A stretch of 64,000 bases of DNA from Escherichia phage slur14. The DNA lies in sequence record NC_028448.1; one strand, 5' to 3'. Below, one piece after another: positions 1 through 43,527 of this stretch (its first letter is position 1; every line of letters starts with the position of its first letter). The notes beneath the pieces are model-generated. The model was not told the origin of the DNA, did no database searches, and worked only from the letters and a program-made list of their open reading frames with translations. Position numbers and translations under genes: made by a program.

Positions 1-1590
1 TCTGGTTCTAAAAGACCAATACCAGCATGTGTAATTCCAAAACGTCCAAAAATGATAGGAGTTAAAGAAGTAGATACAAAATTTCTGAAATAGAATACTT
101 TATTTTTAACTAGTGCTTCGTATATAGGAGCAGTCATACTTTGAGCACGATAAACTGTAATGCCTTCTGGTATACGATCACCATTTTCAAAAGCAGAATC
201 TAAATTAGTTATAGCAGCTTCAATTTCTTTTTCACTCATTACTTCATAACGTTCTGGATCATAACGACCCAAAAGAAGATTATTGATGTCAGTATATCCT
301 GAACCGCAATACTCTCTAATGCCACGCTTTTGTGATGGAGTATATTTAGAACCATCACGGGCAATAGTAATATCAATCATTGGACCTGCACCAATTCCAG
401 AGAAACTATAAATCATTCTTTTGAGGAATTTAGTTTTTGTCGCGTTCCAGGAATTTTTAGTTATTTCTTCCCAGACTTCATCTGGCTGTCCTTTACGGGT
501 TTTATTATGTTTATCAAGCCAAGTATCTTTATATTCTTCAAATAATTGATTAACAGCTGCTGCGTATTTCTCTAAACATTTTATTGAAGTAGTCGGTTCA
601 TTTTTAATCGCATTAAGAATTACATCTTTAATTTTTTCAGAAACTTCATTAACCTCACTTTTTGAAAAGAATTTATAGTCATAATGAAGTTCATCTGCAG
701 TTCCTTCGGCAATGATTTTTGCTGCCTTAGTTTTAGAAGCTAATGAATTAATTCCAATTTTCATTTCTTCTGCTTCGGGAATTAAAGGTGCAGTAGCTGG
801 TTTATTAAAATTAGCTGCTGTAGATTCATACTTCTGGAATAATTCACTTTCAAATCTAGAAGACTCTAATGATTGACTTTGTGCAATTGCTCTACGGGAA
901 ATTTTAACTTTAACGATTACAGCTTGATCAGAACGTTTATCATTTTCTTGTGCAATAGATGCTGCAATTGCCTCATTTTTAGTTACTTGAGCTCCAGTAT
1001 CTTTATTGATATAAACATCACCGACCTTCGATTCAACTTTAGTAAAGAGCTCGGTACTAATTTCCGGAACCCCTGGAATGTCTTCTAGCGATACATTTTT
1101 GCGATGTATAAGAATATATGCATACTTTTTATCATAATCCCAGAGTTCCTTAAGAAGGACGTATCTGCCACCTGAACGACTACGGATAAGTCTATCAGCA
1201 ATAACTTGAATTTGTCGAGCTTGACCAGCAGTTTTAGACTTAAGAATACGGAGCATACAGGCATCAATTTTATACTGACGCATTGTTTGCATTGCAACAG
1301 TAAAAACCGAATTGATATAATTAATTGGGCTTGGACCAAGACCTTTCAATTTAGCAATTGAACCTTTAGCGGTTAATGTAAAAGGAACAATATGCATCAT
1401 TTTATCGCCCATCTTTAAATCGCGATTAGTATCACCTCCAGATGTATAGGTACATAAACGAAAACCTGGTTGTTCAATTGCGTCATCAACATGAACTGAA
1501 AAAATTTGTGGTATTTTCTTCTTTGGATTTAAGTTTGTAATTGGAAGAGTAGTATCTTCGTCAAATAATTCTGTAATTAGTTCCATCATA
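1..1590 (-). CDS. alt: ADP-ribosyltransferase Alt, 3' end cut by window edge
   Basis: Continuous minus-strand frame from ATG at 1588-1590 (GAGAGGA SD upstream) running off coordinate 1; translation contains ...YEALVKNKVFYFRNFVSTSLTPIIFGRFG... as remembered for T4 Alt. Absent from ORF track because the stop lies outside the window. Confidence 0.85.
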
Positions 1591-38075: not shown

Positions 38076-38711
38076 TCACAGTTCAGATGCTACAGTGATT
38101 ACAGCTTCAATGTTTTCTGCCGAGCGTTTAATGTCAAGATACACATTACCGTTTTTAGCGATTTTACATGACATTCCGATATCAGTAAATTTCTGAATAT
38201 GATGTTCCATCATTTTGTATCCAAAAATTCGCATATTTCCATTGTTGTTAATTTCAAAATTACGAATTCCGTGAGTGCGTTTTTCTAAAATAGCGAGATA
38301 GTTACTGCGATAAGTTTCAACCTTTTTAAGAACAAATCCATTTTCATCTAAAAGTTTTAACATGAGGTCTTTATCTTCTTCCATATCGGAAGTAATCTCA
38401 CGAGCTTTACGAGTTGCTCGTTTTTTCAGCAGTTCCGGAGCATTTTCTTGTGCGTATAAAGTTGCTGCATTTGAAATAATATCCTGAGCTTCACCAGTAA
38501 TGATTAATCCATCACCAGATTTCTCCACCAGGCCTTTTTTAATCAATACCCCAATATTACTATTAACTACTGCGTTACCTAAATCTGGATGCACCTCACG
38601 AACTTCTGCAGCTGTAATGAAATCTTTCTTAGCAATAGTAATTAAAATCGCAGCAGTTTTTTCATTCAGAACATCGTTAGAAGCTTTGATGATGTAAGTT
38701 ACTTTAGACAT
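38076..38711 (-). CDS. motA: middle-transcription activator MotA
   Basis: 211 aa, MSKVTYIIKASNDVLNEKTAAILITIAKKDFITAAEVREVHPDLGNAV...; early promoter cassette upstream. Confidence 0.95.
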   Translation of the reverse strand: MSKVTYIIKASNDVLNEKTAAILITIAKKDFITAAEVREVHPDLGNAVVNSNIGVLIKKGLVEKSGDGLIITGEAQDIISNAATLYAQENAPELLKKRATRKAREITSDMEEDKDLMLKLLDENGFVLKKVETYRSNYLAILEKRTHGIRNFEINNNGNMRIFGYKMMEHHIQKFTDIGMSCKIAKNGNVYLDIKRSAENIEAVITVASEL

Positions 38712-38739
38712 TTTCTAATCTCCGTAATTCTGTATCAGT

Positions 38740-38785
38740 AGTTGATAGTTGTATAGTACCACAGTATGCTTTGGTTGTAAACCGT
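38740..38785 (-). promoter_or_regulatory. early promoter cassette upstream of motA
   Basis: Plus-strand GTAGTTGATAGTTGTATAGTACC...GTAAAC, i.e. minus-strand GTTTAC -35 and GGTACTATACAAC -10 region (sigma70-type T4 early pattern). Confidence 0.7.
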
Positions 38786-38802
38786 TTTGTGAAAAAATTT
38801 TA

Positions 38803-38832
38803 AAATAAAAAAGGGAGAGCCTCGGCTCTCCC
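38803..38832 (-). terminator. intrinsic terminator after gene 52 operon
   Basis: Minus-strand GGGAGAGCCGAGGCTCTCCC followed by TTTTTTATTTT. Confidence 0.7.
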
Positions 38833-38837
38833 TAAAA

Positions 38838-38987
38838 TTACTGCATGAATGTGATAACTATCATGATAACACGTTGAATTCCGAACGCAAGAAGACCTCC
38901 TGCTACGGCTGGAACAACGCCTAAACCCGCCAGTAAAATGCTACCAGATACTAATGCAGCGCTTGTAATACCAATGAATGGACTCAT
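38838..38987 (-). CDS. small hydrophobic membrane protein
   Basis: 49-aa ORF not in track; ATG overlaps gp52 stop (ATGA), AGAGGAAA SD. Confidence 0.5.
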   Translation of the reverse strand: MSPFIGITSAALVSGSILLAGLGVVPAVAGGLLAFGIQRVIMIVITFMQ

Positions 38988-40312
38988 TTGATTTCCTCTA
39001 AATCTTTGGTGTATTCTGTAACTACATCAGTAGTTTTCCAATATTCGTTTTCTTCTTTCTTAGCTTTAGCTTCTTCAGCAAGTTTCTTTGCTTCGTCGGA
39101 AGTCATATGAAAAATATTCATACCAACTAGTTTATCAACATAAGAAGAATACATCTCAATTTTAGAAAGTTCTTCGGTCAGTTCTTTACGAGTTTTACCC
39201 TGTACAACAATTTCACCTGAAATTACTTTCTTAATGAAATGCGCCTTGGCAAAGGCTAAACGAAATGCTGATTCAGTTTCTTTGATTTTGTTATCAATTC
39301 GTTTTTGGACATAAGTTTTACGAACTTCAACGAAGTCTTTGATTAAATCAACTACGTTATCGTAAACTTGCAGCTTTCCTTTCTCATTAATAACAGTAAT
39401 ATTCTGTGAACGACGCTCAATCAACCCGAAGTCTTTCATAATTTTAGCGTGACGTTCTTCTTCATTATCGCTCAAAGAGTATTCTTTGCGGAATTTAACT
39501 TTGAAGCCAAAACCATGCTCACCACAAGCATCATCCCACGTAATGAAGCCTTTATCTTCAAGCGGGTCTAAGATTTTACTCACATAAGTTTCACGATCAT
39601 ACTTATACGGAATCTCAGTGATATGCATTTGAGTTCGTGAAGTAAACTTATATGTTCCACGAATTTCATATTGCCCATCAATTTCAACGACTTCACCACG
39701 AAATTCTGGGAATTCTACCTTCGGTTTAGTTACTTTCTTTCCTTGAAGAGCTTGCAGTACAGCTTTCTTAACAGAAGAAACACTATGAGGAAGAATGTAA
39801 GTTGCATAACCAGTTGCAATACCGGAAACGCCATTAAGAAGAACAGTAGGAATAACAGGCAAATAGAAAGCAGGCGGAATGTGTTCTTTATCTTGATGTA
39901 CCGGAGCATATTCAGTATCTTTATATACGTTATAGAAATTTTTACTTACACGAGCAAAAATATAACGACTTGCTGCTGCTTTTTGAACGGTACGAGAACC
40001 AAAGTTTCCTTGACCATCTAACAGAGGAAAGTTATTATTCCAAGTATTAGCCATCAAAGCACCTGCGTCTTGCGCAGAGTTTTCACCATGATGATATCCA
40101 AGGTCCGCTACACCACCTGCAATAGAAGCGAGTTTGTGAAACTTATCTTTATTTCCTCGCGCCAAATCAAGAGCTCGAGCAATAACAAATCGTTGAACTG
40201 GCTTAAATCCATCAATCATATTTGGAATGGCACGATTTTCAACCGTGTACATAGCATAAGCCAATGCTTCATTATCAATGATACTTTTTAAATCGCGATT
40301 ATTCAGTTGCAT
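38984..40312 (-). CDS. 52: DNA topoisomerase II medium subunit gp52 (GyrA-like)
   Basis: 442 aa; MQLNNRDLKSIIDNEALAYAMYTVENRAIPNMIDGFKPVQRFV... Confidence 0.95.
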   Translation of the reverse strand: MQLNNRDLKSIIDNEALAYAMYTVENRAIPNMIDGFKPVQRFVIARALDLARGNKDKFHKLASIAGGVADLGYHHGENSAQDAGALMANTWNNNFPLLDGQGNFGSRTVQKAAASRYIFARVSKNFYNVYKDTEYAPVHQDKEHIPPAFYLPVIPTVLLNGVSGIATGYATYILPHSVSSVKKAVLQALQGKKVTKPKVEFPEFRGEVVEIDGQYEIRGTYKFTSRTQMHITEIPYKYDRETYVSKILDPLEDKGFITWDDACGEHGFGFKVKFRKEYSLSDNEEERHAKIMKDFGLIERRSQNITVINEKGKLQVYDNVVDLIKDFVEVRKTYVQKRIDNKIKETESAFRLAFAKAHFIKKVISGEIVVQGKTRKELTEELSKIEMYSSYVDKLVGMNIFHMTSDEAKKLAEEAKAKKEENEYWKTTDVVTEYTKDLEEIK

Positions 40313-40316
40313 AAAT

Positions 40317-40457
40317 TTACCATACTAGTGAATGTAGTGCCATAATAACATCAGAAATGAAAAGCACGACTTGAATTAATCCGAACATTACTCCATAATA
40401 TAGTGCTATCAATAAAATAGCAAGGGCTAATGAATAGCCCAAGATTTTCTTAATCAT
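40317..40457 (-). CDS. small hydrophobic membrane protein (52.1 position)
   Basis: 46-aa ORF not in track; overlaps next ORF in ATGATTAA. Confidence 0.45.
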   Translation of the reverse strand: MIKKILGYSLALAILLIALYYGVMFGLIQVVLFISDVIMALHSLVW

Positions 40458-40608
40458 TAGTAGATAACAACACAAATGTTAAATATGCACACATACCCTG
40501 AGCTAAAGCTTGCGAAAACACACTGCTGGCATCAATACAGATAGTTAAAACACATGCTACTATCCAACAAATAAATGAAATAACTCCTAATAATTTTGCA
40601 ATATTCAT
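40450..40608 (-). CDS. small membrane protein, possible ac equivalent
   Basis: 52-aa hydrophobic ORF with GAGGAAA SD; size and position match T4 ac as I recall it. Confidence 0.45.
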   Translation of the reverse strand: MNIAKLLGVISFICWIVACVLTICIDASSVFSQALAQGMCAYLTFVLLSTND

Positions 40609-40615
40609 ATTTTCC

Positions 40616-40696
40616 TCACTGGCGTCCGAAGACGCCTTTGGTTTTAAGATTGTTACGATAGAACTGCATCACGTGTTCGTTATGGAAATTACTCAT
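40616..40696 (-). CDS. stp: Stp peptide
   Basis: 26-aa [29 protein letters not shown]; ATG overlaps ndd stop (TAATG). Confidence 0.8.
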
Positions 40697-41154
40697 TAAT
40701 ATGCCTGCAAAACAAATTTAAAGTTATCAGCCAACATACGGTTCATTTCTTCAAGTGTTTGATACTCAGAATGATGATTACGAGTAAACGCCAAAGCTAA
40801 CTGACCTTTACCAAATCCCGTCGTCAGAGGTTTCATCTTAGAAGCAGGCAGATAAAATACTGTGTATGGAACATTGTTATTTGCAATAGTACGCGCAAGC
40901 TGAGACCGACGCTGACGAATATGACTTAGAACCGCACTGAATCCTTGCTTAGAACGCTGATTACCTACATAAAATCGTGCAGACACGCACGGATTACTAA
41001 ATGGACGACCATCTAATTTACACACTAAAAAGTAAAATCCAGGTTTAGATAAAATATCTTTATGTGGAACTCCCAAAAACCATTCACCGTTCTTGATTGT
41101 ACCAATAACGGTAGCGCCTGCGTTGTTCAGATCAGTAACAGTCATATATTTCAT
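40696..41154 (-). CDS. ndd: nucleoid disruption protein Ndd
   Basis: 152 aa from ATG at 41152-41154 ([18 protein letters not shown]...); track start is GTG. Confidence 0.9.
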
Positions 41155-41214
41155 ATTAATTTCCTCTAAATTATTTTCTACTCCAAGGCCGCATGAATAC
41201 ACACGGCCATTAAA

Positions 41215-41430
41215 TTAATCGTCGCAGTCGACGCTCAATTCCCAGAATTCTTCTACGGTATAAGTTTCAGTATCATTTTCAATACAGAAACGTTCATTAC
41301 TATTATTTGCTAAAGTAGCATTAACTGTCGGTTTCTCGCTAGTGCTCTTAAGAGGTGAAATACGAATTAACTGATCACCGTTATCTAAACAAAAAATTTC
41401 ACCAACTTTTACATCTTTAAAACTTTTCAT
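41215..41430 (-). CDS. hypothetical protein (ndd.1 position)
   Basis: 71-aa ORF. Confidence 0.55.
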   Translation of the reverse strand: MKSFKDVKVGEIFCLDNGDQLIRISPLKSTSEKPTVNATLANNSNERFCIENDTETYTVEEFWELSVDCDD

Positions 41431-41545
41431 AATTCACCTCAAGGAGTATAAAATCCAAATGCAGTTGTTGACCATCCCATCCAATATGGGAAATTTGCAC
41501 CAATGTAAAACATAAGAATATAAAACCAAATGTTTAGTAAATTCA

Positions 41546-41743
41546 TCATTTTACACCATTCCAAATTGTTTCAACTACGGATTTTAAACCATTTTGATGA
41601 ATATCAATTCCGACTACTGTCATCAAATAGATTCCAACTACAACTGAACCTAAGGCAAAAATCAGCATGAAAATGAATAAAGCCGGAAAAATATTATCGA
41701 AAAACCATTCAATAGATGTAAAAGCACTGCGTTTACGCTTCAT
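41546..41743 (-). CDS. small membrane protein
   Basis: 65 aa from ATG at 41741-41743 (GAGGAAA SD); hydrophobic core. Confidence 0.5.
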   Translation of the reverse strand: MKRKRSAFTSIEWFFDNIFPALFIFMLIFALGSVVVGIYLMTVVGIDIHQNGLKSVVETIWNGVK

Positions 41744-41750
41744 ATTTTCC

Positions 41751-41864
41751 TCACATAAATCCAAAGTAAACGTTTAATACATCAATCATTAAAACGATTG
41801 GGAATATACTCAAAACTATTAGTATTATAACTACATTCCATATAGCTTTAACAATCTTTTTCAT
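41751..41864 (-). CDS. small membrane peptide
   Basis: 37 aa from ATG at 41862-41864 (GGAGGAAC SD); the track's longer form runs through the promoter cassette. Confidence 0.45.
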   Translation of the reverse strand: MKKIVKAIWNVVIILIVLSIFPIVLMIDVLNVYFGFM

Positions 41865-41879
41865 TTTCTGTTCCTCCGT

Positions 41880-41925
41880 AGTTGATAGTTGTATAGTACC
41901 ACAGAGGAACAGTCTTGTAAACAAC
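41880..41925 (-). promoter_or_regulatory. early promoter cassette
   Basis: Conserved cassette, GTAAAC at 41917-41922. Confidence 0.65.
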
Positions 41926-42107
41926 TTTTTTAAAAATATTCGTAATAAATGTGAATACCAACTACTACCGCTGAAACCTGTGCAACCCACCACGCACAAG
42001 CAATAAGTACAGAATTCAAAATTTTCATAATAACCTCATCACAAAAGTAAATGTTAAACAAATTAATGGAATACTAATTAACCAAACAAAACACCACCAT
42101 AATGAAC

Positions 42108-42371
42108 TCATAGTTCAATCTCAATGATTTCCAGGTGTTTTTGTTTTATTGCCTTTTTAACACAATCATGGACTAAATATGACCATGAATCATTATATTC
42201 TCCATTAACTAATCGTTGGAGATCTTCACGTGATGATAAGTAAGGTTGATCTGATTCCCATTTTGATAAAAATACTGCAGTAAAAATATCTCCTTCACCT
42301 GTAGTTGAAGTCGTAAATGCAATAAATTCACCGGTAATTTTATGTTTAGCGTAATAAAATTTAAATTTCAT
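42108..42371 (-). CDS. hypothetical protein
   Basis: 87-aa ORF downstream of a promoter cassette. Confidence 0.55.
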   Translation of the reverse strand: MKFKFYYAKHKITGEFIAFTTSTTGEGDIFTAVFLSKWESDQPYLSSREDLQRLVNGEYNDSWSYLVHDCVKKAIKQKHLEIIEIEL

Positions 42372-42384
42372 TTTTACTCCTCCG

Positions 42385-42430
42385 TAGCTGATAGTTGTAT
42401 AGTACCACGGTCCTTGTGGTATGTAAACTG
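42385..42430 (-). promoter_or_regulatory. early promoter cassette
   Basis: Conserved cassette, GTAAAC at 42423-42428. Confidence 0.65.
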
Positions 42431-42447
42431 TTTTGTGAAAAAATTTT

Positions 42448-43005
42448 TTAAATGGAAAGATACCATCCGTTGTAGTTGCTTTTTCTTACAACCTTACGAA
42501 GGTCTTCTCTGTCACCGATGAACTTCGGAGTGTACTGGATGACACCTGAATGAATTTCTTTAGTGTTGAATATAATTATACAGTCAGCGACTTGATGATT
42601 TAGAATGGGCCCTAGATTTATTCCAGAACCGTATGGATACTCTCCGCTGCATCCTGTTGTTACAGAAATCCAACGTGAGTCAGTTTGGTGTGTCTTAACT
42701 TCTACACGAAGCCCGCAGTATCTTGGATGCGCCAATACATCCCATGCGTATGTATACGGGTCATTAACATCCTCTTGGCCTTTATTGACATATCCGCTTA
42801 GCCAATCTGCTACAAAAAACTCTGCGTACACAGCGATACGGCATCTTTCGATAACTTCTGCCTTATCCTGATTCGGATTTTGTTTTAAAGAGTATCTTGC
42901 TGTATCAGCAATTTTGACCTTCATTTCACTAGTCAAGTCACTGTTCGATAGGGTAAATGTCGGAATCTGAAATAGTCTCTGTAAACCCGGATTCGTTTTC
43001 TGCAT
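42448..43005 (-). CDS. denB: endonuclease IV
   Basis: 185 aa, position between ndd cluster and rIIB as in T4. Confidence 0.85.
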   Translation of the reverse strand: MQKTNPGLQRLFQIPTFTLSNSDLTSEMKVKIADTARYSLKQNPNQDKAEVIERCRIAVYAEFFVADWLSGYVNKGQEDVNDPYTYAWDVLAHPRYCGLRVEVKTHQTDSRWISVTTGCSGEYPYGSGINLGPILNHQVADCIIIFNTKEIHSGVIQYTPKFIGDREDLRKVVRKSNYNGWYLSI

Positions 43006-43267
43006 TTAGACTTTCCTTTTTACCACTGAGATAGGCGTTATATACTTTAAGAGTGCCATAATAAATTCGGTCATTTTCATCTAAAGACTCGCGGTCAAGT
43101 TCATCGAGCTCCTTTTTATCCATGACTATAACATTATTACAGTAAAGAAACCCAAGTTTTTCGTGACCAAACTCAAATTTATTACAGTACACAATATTAG
43201 CGTGATGATTTCCGTGCAGTTTAATCTCTTTTATGTCGGAATCACCGATATTCATACAATAAATCAT
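42938..43267 (-). CDS. hypothetical protein (denB.1 position)
   Basis: 109-aa ORF overlapping denB 5' end by 68 nt. Confidence 0.5.
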   Translation of the reverse strand: MIYCMNIGDSDIKEIKLHGNHHANIVYCNKFEFGHEKLGFLYCNNVIVMDKKELDELDRESLDENDRIYYGTLKVYNAYLSGKKESLNAENESGFTETISDSDIYPIEQ

Positions 43268-43304
43268 AATTTTTCCTTAAAACAAAAGGGCCGAAGCCCT
43301 TATT

Positions 43305-43499
43305 TTATTTGAATTGTGCAATTCTTTTCTCTAGACATTCAGCATAAGATTTCATTGAGATGAACTGTGAAAGTAGCAGTTCTTGCTCAACTGCACTAAC
43401 TGTTAGAAACTTTGCGCTTTCTAAAAATTTGCTCAGTGCATTAATTTTGAGCATTAATTGATCGTATTCTTCTTTTACTCGTGCTTGATAACCTAACAT
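43305..43499 (-). CDS. hypothetical protein
   Basis: 64-aa ORF flanked by GGGCCGAAGCCC hairpins. Confidence 0.5.
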   Translation of the reverse strand: MLGYQARVKEEYDQLMLKINALSKFLESAKFLTVSAVEQELLLSQFISMKSYAECLEKRIAQFK

Positions 43500-43527
43500 A
43501 ATTTTCCTTAGTTAAGGGCCGAAGCCC

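Follow-up and report, generated by a model that had tools for sequence, protein, structure and literature searches.

What is the run of very small hydrophobic reading frames between gene 52 and denB in the 64-kb window (the whole stretch of DNA analysed here), are its members genuine genes, and what might their products do in an infected cell? We compared the locus with known phage genes, asked how its frames have been selected, and weighed several explanations for the products that it encodes.

The block of small genes between gene 52 and denB

The window belongs to a T4-type phage and is 100% identical to Escherichia phage slur03 across this region. On the minus strand, from gene 52 to denB, we identified seven hydrophobic micro-genes of 28–65 aa, namely 52.1, ac, ndd.2, ndd.2a, ndd.4, ndd.5, and ndd.6, with the non-hydrophobic 26-aa stp as well as ndd and ndd.1 interspersed among them. 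The initial annotation had located micro-ORFs here and had named genes 52, ndd, stp, and denB; all of these ORFs are indeed present on the minus strand at the positions given, and the four gene calls are correct. Its description of at least six ORFs of 23–65 aa, almost all hydrophobic, captured a real run, but one of seven hydrophobic members of 28–65 aa, of which ndd.2 is borderline. The run lies between gene 52 and denB as described, but it also continues past gene 52 to motA.1. The genes are as follows, with hydropathy given as the best 19-residue Kyte–Doolittle window:

38838..38987, minus strand: motA.1, 49 aa, hydrophobic; start overlaps the gene 52 stop (ATGA)
38984..40312, minus strand: gene 52, DNA topoisomerase II medium subunit; micro membrane ORFs lie to either side
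40317..40457, minus strand: 52.1, 46 aa; hydropathy 2.48; phrog_3595
40450..40608, minus strand: ac, 52 aa; hydropathy 2.74; two hydrophobic segments; phrog_2501
40616..40696, minus strand: stp, 26 aa; hydropathy -0.85, not hydrophobic; phrog_6763
40696..41154, minus strand: ndd, nucleoid disruption protein, 152 aa
41215..41430, minus strand: ndd.1, 71 aa, soluble, acidic, not hydrophobic; GRAVY -0.54; phrog_2183
41439..41549, minus strand: ndd.2, 36 aa; hydropathy 1.29, borderline or weak, aromatic-rich; phrog_4135
41546..41743, minus strand: ndd.2a, 65 aa; hydropathy 2.71; phrog_2401
41751..41864, minus strand: ndd.4, 37 aa; hydropathy 3.06; phrog_3098
41930..42028, minus strand: ndd.5, 32 aa; hydropathy 2.17; phrog_5011
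42025..42111, minus strand: ndd.6, 28 aa; hydropathy 2.31; phrog_8851
42108..42371, minus strand: 87-aa ORF, soluble; phrog_2390; heads the coupled ndd.6–ndd.5 unit

Every micro-gene carries a T4 gene name in NC_000866, and the block matches NC_000866, RB51, and other records gene by gene, with protein identities to the NC_000866 orthologues of 92–100%. PHROG matches were obtained for all micro-genes (E = 1e-17 to 1e-28) and Pfam matches for 52.1, ndd.2a, and stp; a search of the block against NCBIfam gave zero matches, and an Rfam scan of 38500–43500 gave one sub-threshold chance match only. Between gene 52 and denB the window follows T4 in gene order, position, and orientation, and the same arrangement is found in 18 Tequatrovirus loci. 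Taken together, these results identify the run as the block of small genes in the T4 "D region", composed of long-annotated T4 genes that are already known. That these frames were annotated and named in T4 had escaped the initial annotation. The discovery value is low, the names having stood in the T4 genome for decades and the families being curated. However, the micro-genes are omitted from many GenBank records of T4-like phages, so tools that drop short ORFs miss about seven conserved, selected membrane peptides.

The 52.1 product belongs to Pfam DUF7396 (PF24129, E = 1.3e-22; 80.1 bits versus a curated cut-off of 27), and a tblastn search found it in 728 phage records, all matches listed being T4-like genomes of 160–172 kb. 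The ndd.2a product belongs to DUF7248 (PF23906, E = 3.5e-19; 69.0 bits versus a curated cut-off of 27) and has a basic N-terminus, followed by one transmembrane helix and then, at the C-terminus, by a conserved helix with the sequence GLKSVVE.IWNG. It is represented by 147 protein clusters that come, where a source is named, almost entirely from T4-like phages, with full-length contigs of ~165–175 kb. In ndd.4, which occurs in 595 phage records, N-terminal lysines are followed by one very hydrophobic helix. AlphaFold2 modelled 52.1 as a single 44-residue helix (pLDDT 96) and ndd.2a as helices at residues 6–17, 19–51, and 53–62, with the caveat that single-chain AlphaFold defaults to helices on short hydrophobic peptides and is uninformative on their topology. 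A search for relatives of solved structure returned none for 52.1, ac, and ndd.4; for ndd.2a it gave nothing beyond a GPCR transmembrane match, which is spurious. Beyond gene 52, motA.1 is annotated in T4 and RB51 and has a pN/pS of 0.12 among close pairs. A 30-aa ORF at 42374–42466 was rejected as a gene: it sits over a promoter module, its frame and length vary, and in many relatives it is fused to the 87-aa ORF.

Conservation and selection of the micro-genes

Six ORFs that start with ATG, encode 25–80 aa, and reach 1.9 or more in a 19-residue hydropathy window were found on the minus strand of 40317–42111 and none on the plus strand. Among 500 dinucleotide-preserving shuffles the mean was 0.44 and the maximum 4, and 0/500 reached six. 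Frame conservation in relatives had been set beforehand as a refutation test, and the frames proved clearly conserved, being intact in ~96% of the gene copies of 18 close relatives (five disrupted among ~126). Across 18 Tequatroviruses the pN/pS ratios were 0.27 for 52.1, 0.10 for ac, 0.17 for ndd.2, 0.08 for both ndd.2a and ndd.5, and 0.11 for ndd.6, comparable to those of ndd (0.11) and denB (0.06), while alternative frames mostly gave ~1 or more, with the exceptions of frame +1 of 52.1 (0.33) and of ndd.6 (0.46). The shuffles and the pN/pS ratios rule out chance ORFs in T-rich DNA.

The pattern of ndd.4 is different. Within Tequatrovirus it has only 9 variable sites, too few to be informative, and a pN/pS of ~1.15 that arises from I/V changes, with no synonymous excess; between genera pN is lower than pS, and the protein motifs persist. 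Zero synonymous diversity in ndd.4 had been considered as a sign of an overlapping element, but this was weakened when pS came to 0.022 with 18 genomes. Gene 52 is lower still in diversity at its 5' end (pi 0.004 versus 0.018), so the low diversity of ndd.4 looks like local mosaic history.

For a deeper comparison we assembled 62 sequences (61 fetched loci and the window), whose ndd proteins are 40–99% identical to that of the window. In this set 52.1 occurs 48 times, with an invariant core YYG...VVLFISD.I...S..W; ndd.4 occurs in 45 loci with the conserved motif KAIWN...SIFP.V..ID, and ndd.6 in 35 with MSSK.WC..W..SIP.IC. Ndd.2a is present in 27 sequences and ndd.2 in 24, the ndd.2 motif G.N.PYW.G.S reaching Marfavirus and Kanagawavirus relatives; a second ndd.2 ATG at 41546 is better conserved and gives a 35-aa product. 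Ndd.5 was found in 13 loci, all Tequatrovirus in this sample. Five families have motif-conserving homologues in other T4-like genera. Outside T4-like phages, no homologues were seen for ndd.2a, 52.1, ndd.4, or ac, and an exhaustive HMMER search with ac recovered three phage clusters only; stp is the exception, with homologues beyond T4-like phages. A tandem paralogue array was also rejected, as all-against-all hhalign probabilities were at most 6.2%. These analyses show seven separate, non-paralogous families; either purifying selection or conserved motifs are seen in every one. Judged by their sequences, the micro-ORFs are genuine genes.

Translation and transcription of the block

The initial annotation had credited these ORFs with good Shine–Dalgarno (SD) sequences and ATGA overlaps. 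Strong SD sequences indeed precede ac and ndd.2a (each GTGAGGAAAATATG), ndd.4 (ACGGAGGAACAGAAAATG), and ndd.5 (GAGG), but they are weak or absent in 52.1, ndd.2, and ndd.6, whose starts overlap the upstream stop. The 52.1 gene, which has no SD, shares its first 8 nt (ATGATTAA) with the end of ac. An ATGA overlap joins the ndd.2 start to the ndd.2a stop, the ndd.5 start to the ndd.6 stop, and the ndd.6 start to the stop of the 87-aa ORF; stp and ndd overlap by one base (TAATG). The coupling junctions are kept among relatives, with -4 in 32/32 loci for ndd.6 and the 87-aa ORF, -4 in 14/14 for gene 52 and motA.1, and further junctions at -4 in 19/20 and -8 in 21/27. It is likely that members without an SD are read through the stop/start overlap from the upstream gene, which would give coupled chains running from the 87-aa ORF through ndd.6 to ndd.5, from ndd.2a to ndd.2, and from ac to 52.1, followed by gene 52, whose start lies 4 nt beyond the 52.1 stop, and then by motA.1. 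In most T4-like phages, translational coupling links gene 52 to 52.1 on one side and to motA.1 on the other.

Three further elements on the minus strand bear on transcription and RNA structure:

40621..40636, minus strand: GGCGUCUUCGGACGCC tetraloop hairpin, from a terminator-like scan; encodes the Stp C-terminus GVFGR
41868..41921, minus strand: early-promoter-like site (TTTACA, 17 nt, TG-TACTAT), directly upstream of ndd.4
42399..42427, minus strand: early-promoter-like module, second copy, upstream of the 87-aa ORF (direct repeats D2 and D3)

This layout shows short early transcription units behind promoters of the T4 early type. Upstream of ndd.4, the spacer of the promoter and the ndd.4 SD form the two arms of a 15-bp inverted repeat, a hairpin that could sequester this SD. 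Its RNA has a folding energy of -23.2 kcal/mol (z = -4.6), and across 11 variants of the hairpin 98.8% of cells are paired and the changes are one-sided wobble only. The GGCGUCUUCGGACGCC hairpin stops 4 nt short of GAGG in the ac SD.

In T4, the transcripts of the block genes are classed as early, and ndd.1 was detected by mass spectrometry, whereas all nine small products, ac and stp among them, went undetected in the time-course proteome, which the authors attributed to their small size (PMC9697503 Table S2). Deletion sa-delta-9 of T4 takes out the genes from 52.1 through denB; it abolished the stimulation of phospholipid (phosphatidylglycerol) synthesis by T4 and halved phage production. 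On laboratory strains the phage can do without the entire block (PMC6071114).

Proposed action of the products and comparison with known systems

Functional evidence among the micro-genes of the block exists for ac and stp only; our literature searches on the functions of 52.1 and ndd.2–6, and on T4 ribosome profiling, returned nothing. Stp is a different kind of molecule from the rest, a soluble peptide. In T4 it inhibits the type Ic restriction enzyme EcoprrI, unleashing the PrrC anticodon nuclease (PMC1484252). The window Stp shows 100% identity to its T4 counterpart, and its residues 1–26 match PF08133, the family of anticodon nuclease activators (E = 2e-21; 75.3 bits versus a cut-off of 25). 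The initial identification of stp as the PrrC activator peptide is thus borne out, and we infer from this identity and the literature that the window stp probably acts as an EcoprrI inhibitor and PrrC activator. The ac gene, an acridine/acriflavine sensitivity gene, is annotated as encoding an acridine resistance protein. Ac expressed alone raises sensitivity to acriflavine and ampicillin, the G38R substitution eliminates the phenotype in the phage, and the hypothesis put forward is that Ac blocks AcrAB-TolC efflux (bioRxiv 10.1101/2025.06.30.662393).

The initial annotation had regarded the micro-ORF products as membrane-targeted modulators. Their hydropathy and AlphaFold helices fit the membrane, while the word "modulators" draws on position beside host-directed genes; it is a reasonable reading and also the T4 field's own hypothesis, these products having been termed predicted membrane proteins (PMC6071114). 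The best explanation of the whole, to which we give a probability of about 0.6, is that this is the D-region block and that its early, membrane-inserted products act on specific host partners. In the first minutes of infection, the products would enter the inner membrane of the host, each as one helix or a pair of helices, with the basic N-termini of 52.1, ndd.2a, and ndd.4 staying in the cytoplasm. By analogy with bacterial small membrane proteins that tune larger partners, each may use its family-specific conserved residues to bind one particular host target, either a membrane protein or an enzyme of lipid metabolism.

A rather unlikely alternative is counter-defence, in which the products neutralise or decoy membrane-embedded abortive-infection or exclusion systems of the host or a prophage instead of retuning housekeeping membrane functions. 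It fits with the neighbouring stp, which inhibits a restriction enzyme, with rIIB/rIIA just past denB, which counter RexAB (PMC11879866), and with the dispensability of the whole block on laboratory strains. It also fits with the loss of single genes in single isolates and with allelic divergence: ac exists as two alleles about 40% identical, both types lying in tandem in one phage, and the 87-aa ORF likewise has two alleles about 55% identical. However, 52.1, ndd.4, ndd.5, and ndd.6 are strongly conserved and not diversifying, no defence system is known as the target of any member, and the phage functional-genomics literature that we searched leaves the block genes unmentioned.

It is more doubtful still that one or more of the micro-proteins other than Ac and Stp is the T4 factor, long sought, that accounts for a region-level phenotype such as the sa-delta-9 loss of phosphatidylglycerol stimulation, or that 52.1 and motA.1 tether or regulate topoisomerase at the membrane. 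The micro-genes other than ac and stp nevertheless make a compact, well-defined list of targets in a region whose deletion alters host lipid synthesis.

We consider it improbable that the products are non-specific peptides, akin to holins or type I toxins, which shut off the host through a leaky or depolarised inner membrane. One hydrophobic helix dominates all members, Ac sensitises cells to two unrelated drugs, and many cloned T4 immediate-early small genes are lethal (PMC6071114). Against this, a generic disrupter would need neither the family-specific polar and aromatic motifs nor the non-membrane C-terminal helix of ndd.2a, the families are mutually unrelated, and expression is early with no adjoining endolysin gene. 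Moreover, T4 needs an energised membrane in early infection. Finally, the act of translation alone might matter, delivering ribosomes to gene 52 or ndd.1 or protecting mRNA, with the peptides as by-products made hydrophobic by a sense strand of 37% T, but despite the tightly coupled junctions and the fact that the peptides were never seen by mass spectrometry this is very improbable, since the ac missense change G38R alters the phenotype and pN/pS ratios of 0.08–0.27, together with motifs that persist between genera at nearly saturated synonymous divergence (pS ~0.7–0.8), indicate selection on the peptide sequences.

The action on specific host partners that we favour can be set beside known systems. 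The closest comparison is T4 itself, whose 52.1–ndd.6 genes (T4p265–T4p275) have the same order, strand, lengths, and junctions as those of the window. Three differences were found: the window has an intact 65-aa ndd.2a, which a one-base gap splits into "ndd.3" and a truncated "ndd.2a" in the T4 reference; its Ac carries one extra threonine near the C-terminus; and it has the 87-aa ORF between ndd.6 and denB, which is absent from the T4 reference and annotated in slur03 and RB51.

Imm, Sp, RI, and holin T are also small T4 membrane or periplasmic proteins, several of them early and non-essential in the laboratory, but at ~80–220 aa they are larger than the block products and have roles in superinfection exclusion or lysis timing; to our knowledge, neither kind of phenotype has been mapped to an ndd.x gene. 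Peptides of a holin or lysis cassette were rejected, as the transcripts are early and the neighbours are topoisomerase, ndd, and denB, not endolysin.

Bacterial small inner-membrane regulators of the AcrZ type have fewer than 70 aa, a single hydrophobic helix, and a presumed binding to a larger membrane protein. The block products share the size and the helix, with hydropathy of 2.2–3.1 in six of the seven and helical models. BLASTP of Ac against AcrZ gave no alignment at E up to 100, with an approximate AcrZ query sequence. The two also differ in direction: AcrZ binds AcrB and supports pump function, whereas Ac is proposed to block the same pump.

Gene content and annotation of the block

On either side of the micro-gene region lie gene 52, for a topoisomerase subunit, and denB, for endonuclease IV, and every gene within the region is on the minus strand. 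Positions 40200-42500 match Escherichia phage slur03 (Tequatrovirus) at 100% identity and several hundred further T4-type genomes at 88-97%. The run of very small ORFs proposed in the initial annotation is indeed present, with six hydrophobic ORFs against a mean of 0.44 and a maximum of 4 comparable ORFs when the sense strand was shuffled 500 times with dinucleotides preserved, and none on the opposite strand. Its description of almost all members as a hydrophobic helix holds for most of them (hydropathy 2.17-3.06), but ndd.2 is borderline and stp is hydrophilic.

Genes of the block and its neighbours (hydropathy, best 19-residue window; pN/pS, annotated frame in 18 Tequatrovirus loci)
motA.1: 38838-38987 (-), 49 aa, hydrophobic, on the far side of gene 52
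52.1: 40317-40457 (-), 46 aa, hydropathy 2.48, pN/pS 0.27
ac: 40450-40608 (-), 52 aa, hydropathy 2.74, pN/pS 0.10
stp: 40616-40696 (-), 26 aa, hydropathy -0.85, hydrophilic, pN/pS 0.06
ndd: 40696-41154 (-), 152 aa, hydropathy 0.64, not hydrophobic, pN/pS 0.11 (control)
ndd.1: 41215-41430 (-), 71 aa, hydropathy 0.48, not hydrophobic
ndd.2: 41439-41549 (-), 36 aa (35 aa if the second ATG is the start), hydropathy 1.29, borderline, aromatic-rich, pN/pS 0.17
ndd.2a: 41546-41743 (-), 65 aa, hydropathy 2.71, pN/pS 0.08
ndd.4: 41751-41864 (-), 37 aa, hydropathy 3.06, pN/pS near 1
ndd.5: 41930-42028 (-), 32 aa, hydropathy 2.17, pN/pS 0.08
ndd.6: 42025-42111 (-), 28 aa, hydropathy 2.31, pN/pS 0.11
87-aa ORF: 42108-42371 (-), phrog_2390, soluble
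denB (control): pN/pS 0.06

The block has been described and annotated before. NC_000866, the T4 reference, has entries for 52.1, ac, stp, ndd, ndd.1, ndd.2, ndd.2a, ndd.3, ndd.4, ndd.5 and ndd.6, most of them labelled "predicted membrane / periplasmic protein"; the genes are also annotated in RB51 and BASEL phage WilhelmHis. Every protein of the block matches a PHROG family, and Pfam assigns 52.1 to DUF7396, ndd.2a to DUF7248 and stp to PF08133. The micro-genes look unannotated to an ORF-length filter because annotation is patchy among records: several are left out of the Ge15, EC121, T6 and G28 records, and by tblastn the 52.1 and ndd.4 loci carry the annotation "none" in many records. It makes up a compact set of phage membrane peptides that are still uncharacterised.

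Coding status and translation

In contrast to the annotated frames, the two alternative frames mostly gave pN/pS of ~1 or above, except 52.1 frame +1 (0.33) and ndd.6 frame +1 (0.46). The exception among the annotated frames is ndd.4, which has nine variable sites only, mostly I/V exchanges, in the 18 Tequatroviruses; its protein keeps ~60% identity and the motif KAIWN...SIFP.V..ID in Dhakavirus, Kanagawavirus and Marfavirus relatives. Nucleotide diversity of ndd.4 is unusually low in the same 18 loci (pi 0.018, pS 0.022) compared with its neighbours (pi about 0.04-0.10, pS 0.12-0.20), which probably reflects mosaic history rather than extra constraint, since the gene 52 5' end is lower still.

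Only five of ~126 copies are disrupted: two in one T2 record (ac and ndd.2a) and one each in the T4 reference (ndd.2a), EC121 (ndd.2) and a metagenomic contig (ndd.6). The T2 record (MH751506) carries in-frame stops, S11* in ac and G45* in ndd.2a; ndd.2 of EC121 is frameshifted, as is ndd.6 of the contig at its C-terminus, and FL33 has a frameshifted ndd. Inactivations are sporadic, in individual isolates. An iterated profile search of 62 sequences (61 fetched loci and the window, with ndd proteins 40-99% identical to the window's) found 52.1 in 48, ndd.4 in 45, ndd.6 in 35, ndd.2a in 27, ndd.2 in 24 and ac in 23, with ndd.5 confined to Tequatrovirus; the slot of an absent named family is usually filled by another small hydrophobic ORF.

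The good Shine-Dalgarno (SD) sequences and ATGA overlaps that had been reported are divided among the genes: SDs are strong at ac, ndd.2a, ndd.4 and ndd.5 but weak or absent at 52.1, ndd.2 and ndd.6, each of whose starts overlaps the upstream gene's stop (ATGATTAA, ATGA and ATGA, respectively). Overlap junctions are well kept, at -4 from the 87-aa ORF to ndd.6 (32/32 loci), -4 from ndd.6 to ndd.5 (19/20), -8 from ac to 52.1 (21/27) and -4 from gene 52 to motA.1 (14/14). Frame conservation in close relatives, on which the initial annotation let its proposal depend, was thus found in the pN/pS of 18 loci, in the intact frames of all but five of ~126 copies and in the overlap junctions.

RNA-seq classed all block genes as early in T4, and mass spectrometry detected ndd and ndd.1; 52.1, ac, stp, ndd.2, ndd.2a, ndd.3, ndd.4, ndd.5 and ndd.6 were undetected, which the authors ascribed to small size, with the ndd.4 product as example (PMC9697503). 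A literature search found no ribosome-profiling study of T4; for the uncharacterised members, the evidence of translation is therefore evolutionary. Taken together, we put the probability that the micro-genes are genuine coding genes at about 0.95.

Sequence variants and RNA elements

At ndd.2a codon 2 (41729-41743), NC_000866 is without one G (ATGAA-CGT versus ATGAAGCGT; compared with OZ209057.1), so that its annotation has "ndd.3" (26 aa) and a shortened "ndd.2a" (40 aa). Because re-sequenced T4, RB51, T6 and the window all hold a single intact 65-aa ndd.2a, "ndd.3" seems to reflect a lesion of the strain or an error in the reference. Two ac types (T4 and RB51, ~40% identical) occur, in tandem in phage Aplg8; the Ac of the window has an extra threonine (…LLSTND), which was reported to be without effect on acriflavine sensitivity (bioRxiv 10.1101/2025.06.30.662393). 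The 87-aa ORF, also of two types (~55% identical), is missing from the T4 reference and one T2 record, and at 42108-42466 a promoter-crossing frame (a 30-aa ORF in the window) continues into it in several relatives to give 119-120 aa.

Gene 52 is flanked on both sides by coupled micro membrane ORFs (38838-40457): the 52.1 stop lies 4 nt ahead of its start, motA.1 overlaps its stop (ATGA), and a small hydrophobic ORF sits immediately 5' of it in nearly all compared T4-like loci. The ac and ndd.2a genes have the same 16 nt of ribosome-binding site and start, GTGAGGAAAATATGAA. The final stp codons (GVFGR, 40616-40636) form a GGCGUCUUCGGACGCC tetraloop hairpin, so that the same bases serve the C-terminus of Stp and an RNA structure; 4 nt separate the end of this hairpin from the GAGG of the ac SD.

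An early-promoter-like module (GTTTACA, 17 nt, TG-TACTAT, leader, GGAGG) occurs in two copies, one ahead of ndd.4 and one ahead of the 87-aa ORF. The duplication (41865-41934 and 42371-42452) comprises 38 nt at 89% and 27 nt at 81% identity, and a "Pseudomonas" phage record of 142 kb matches 67 nt of the module at 95.5%. At 41868-41912 (-) the ndd.4 SD pairs with the spacer of the adjacent upstream promoter in a 15-bp hairpin (-23.2 kcal/mol, z = -4.6), which would mask the ribosome-binding site in read-through transcripts; transcripts from the proximal promoter would come without the 5' arm. Pairing is maintained in 11 sequence variants through wobble changes only, and thus without compensatory proof; the other promoter copy has no such SD pairing.

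Probable membrane peptides and known functions of the region

The families are mutually unrelated (hhalign probability at most 6%), and each keeps particular residues besides general hydrophobicity: LYYG...VVLFISDVI...S..W in 52.1, a central SVF.Q..AQG with a hydrophobic stretch on either side in ac, G.N.PYW.G.S in ndd.2 and MSSK.WC..W..SIP.IC in ndd.6, while the GLKSVVE.IWNG tail of ndd.2a is nearly invariant and comes after a variable basic N-terminus and transmembrane segment. AlphaFold2 with family alignments predicted one 44-residue helix for 52.1 (pLDDT 96) and helices at 6-17, 19-51 and 53-62 for ndd.2a, with high confidence in the membrane segment only; the models support helicity, not topology. 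No relatives were found among solved structures. Large-database searches placed ndd.2a, 52.1 and ac on T4-like-sized contigs or phage-labelled records; most matches came from short, unlabelled metagenome contigs, and a few NCBI names were bacterial.

We propose a conserved block of immediate-early micro-genes, in part translationally coupled, whose peptides would become embedded in the inner membrane of the host and act via specific contacts with host membrane components. Of the initial suggestion of membrane-targeted modulators, the membrane location is very probable given the hydropathy and helical models, whereas for specific modulators the odds are about even. The micro-proteins might alternatively be counter-defence factors or non-specific permeabilisers; the reading as translation-only spacers is contradicted by pN/pS, since selection acts on amino acids.

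No functional papers on 52.1 or ndd.2 through ndd.6 were found in the literature. In T4, the latent PrrC anticodon nuclease is activated through the inhibition of EcoprrI, a type Ic enzyme, by Stp (PMC1484252), and the Pfam match bears out the earlier identification of stp as the 26-aa PrrC activator. Raoultella phage RP180, a 45-kb Kagunavirus siphovirus, has an unannotated 25-aa frame nearly identical to T4 Stp (1195-1272 (-) of the fetched locus L069), and Stp-like frames occur in the further 42-50 kb non-T4 phages Ro145clw, Rtp and LHE71; judging from these frames, stp appears to pass between phage families that are not related. Deletion or mutation of ac (including G38R) makes T4 acriflavine-resistant, and Ac expressed alone raises the acriflavine sensitivity of E. 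coli by ~3 logs and makes it sensitive to ampicillin too; the authors proposed that Ac blocks the AcrAB-TolC pump (bioRxiv 10.1101/2025.06.30.662393), as repeated in a 2026 PNAS paper. Ac has no sequence similarity to AcrZ. The T4 sa-delta-9 deletion, which spans 52.1 through denB, abolishes phage stimulation of phospholipid synthesis, of phosphatidylglycerol especially, and halves phage production, and several products of this region are thought to be membrane-located (reviewed in PMC6071114).
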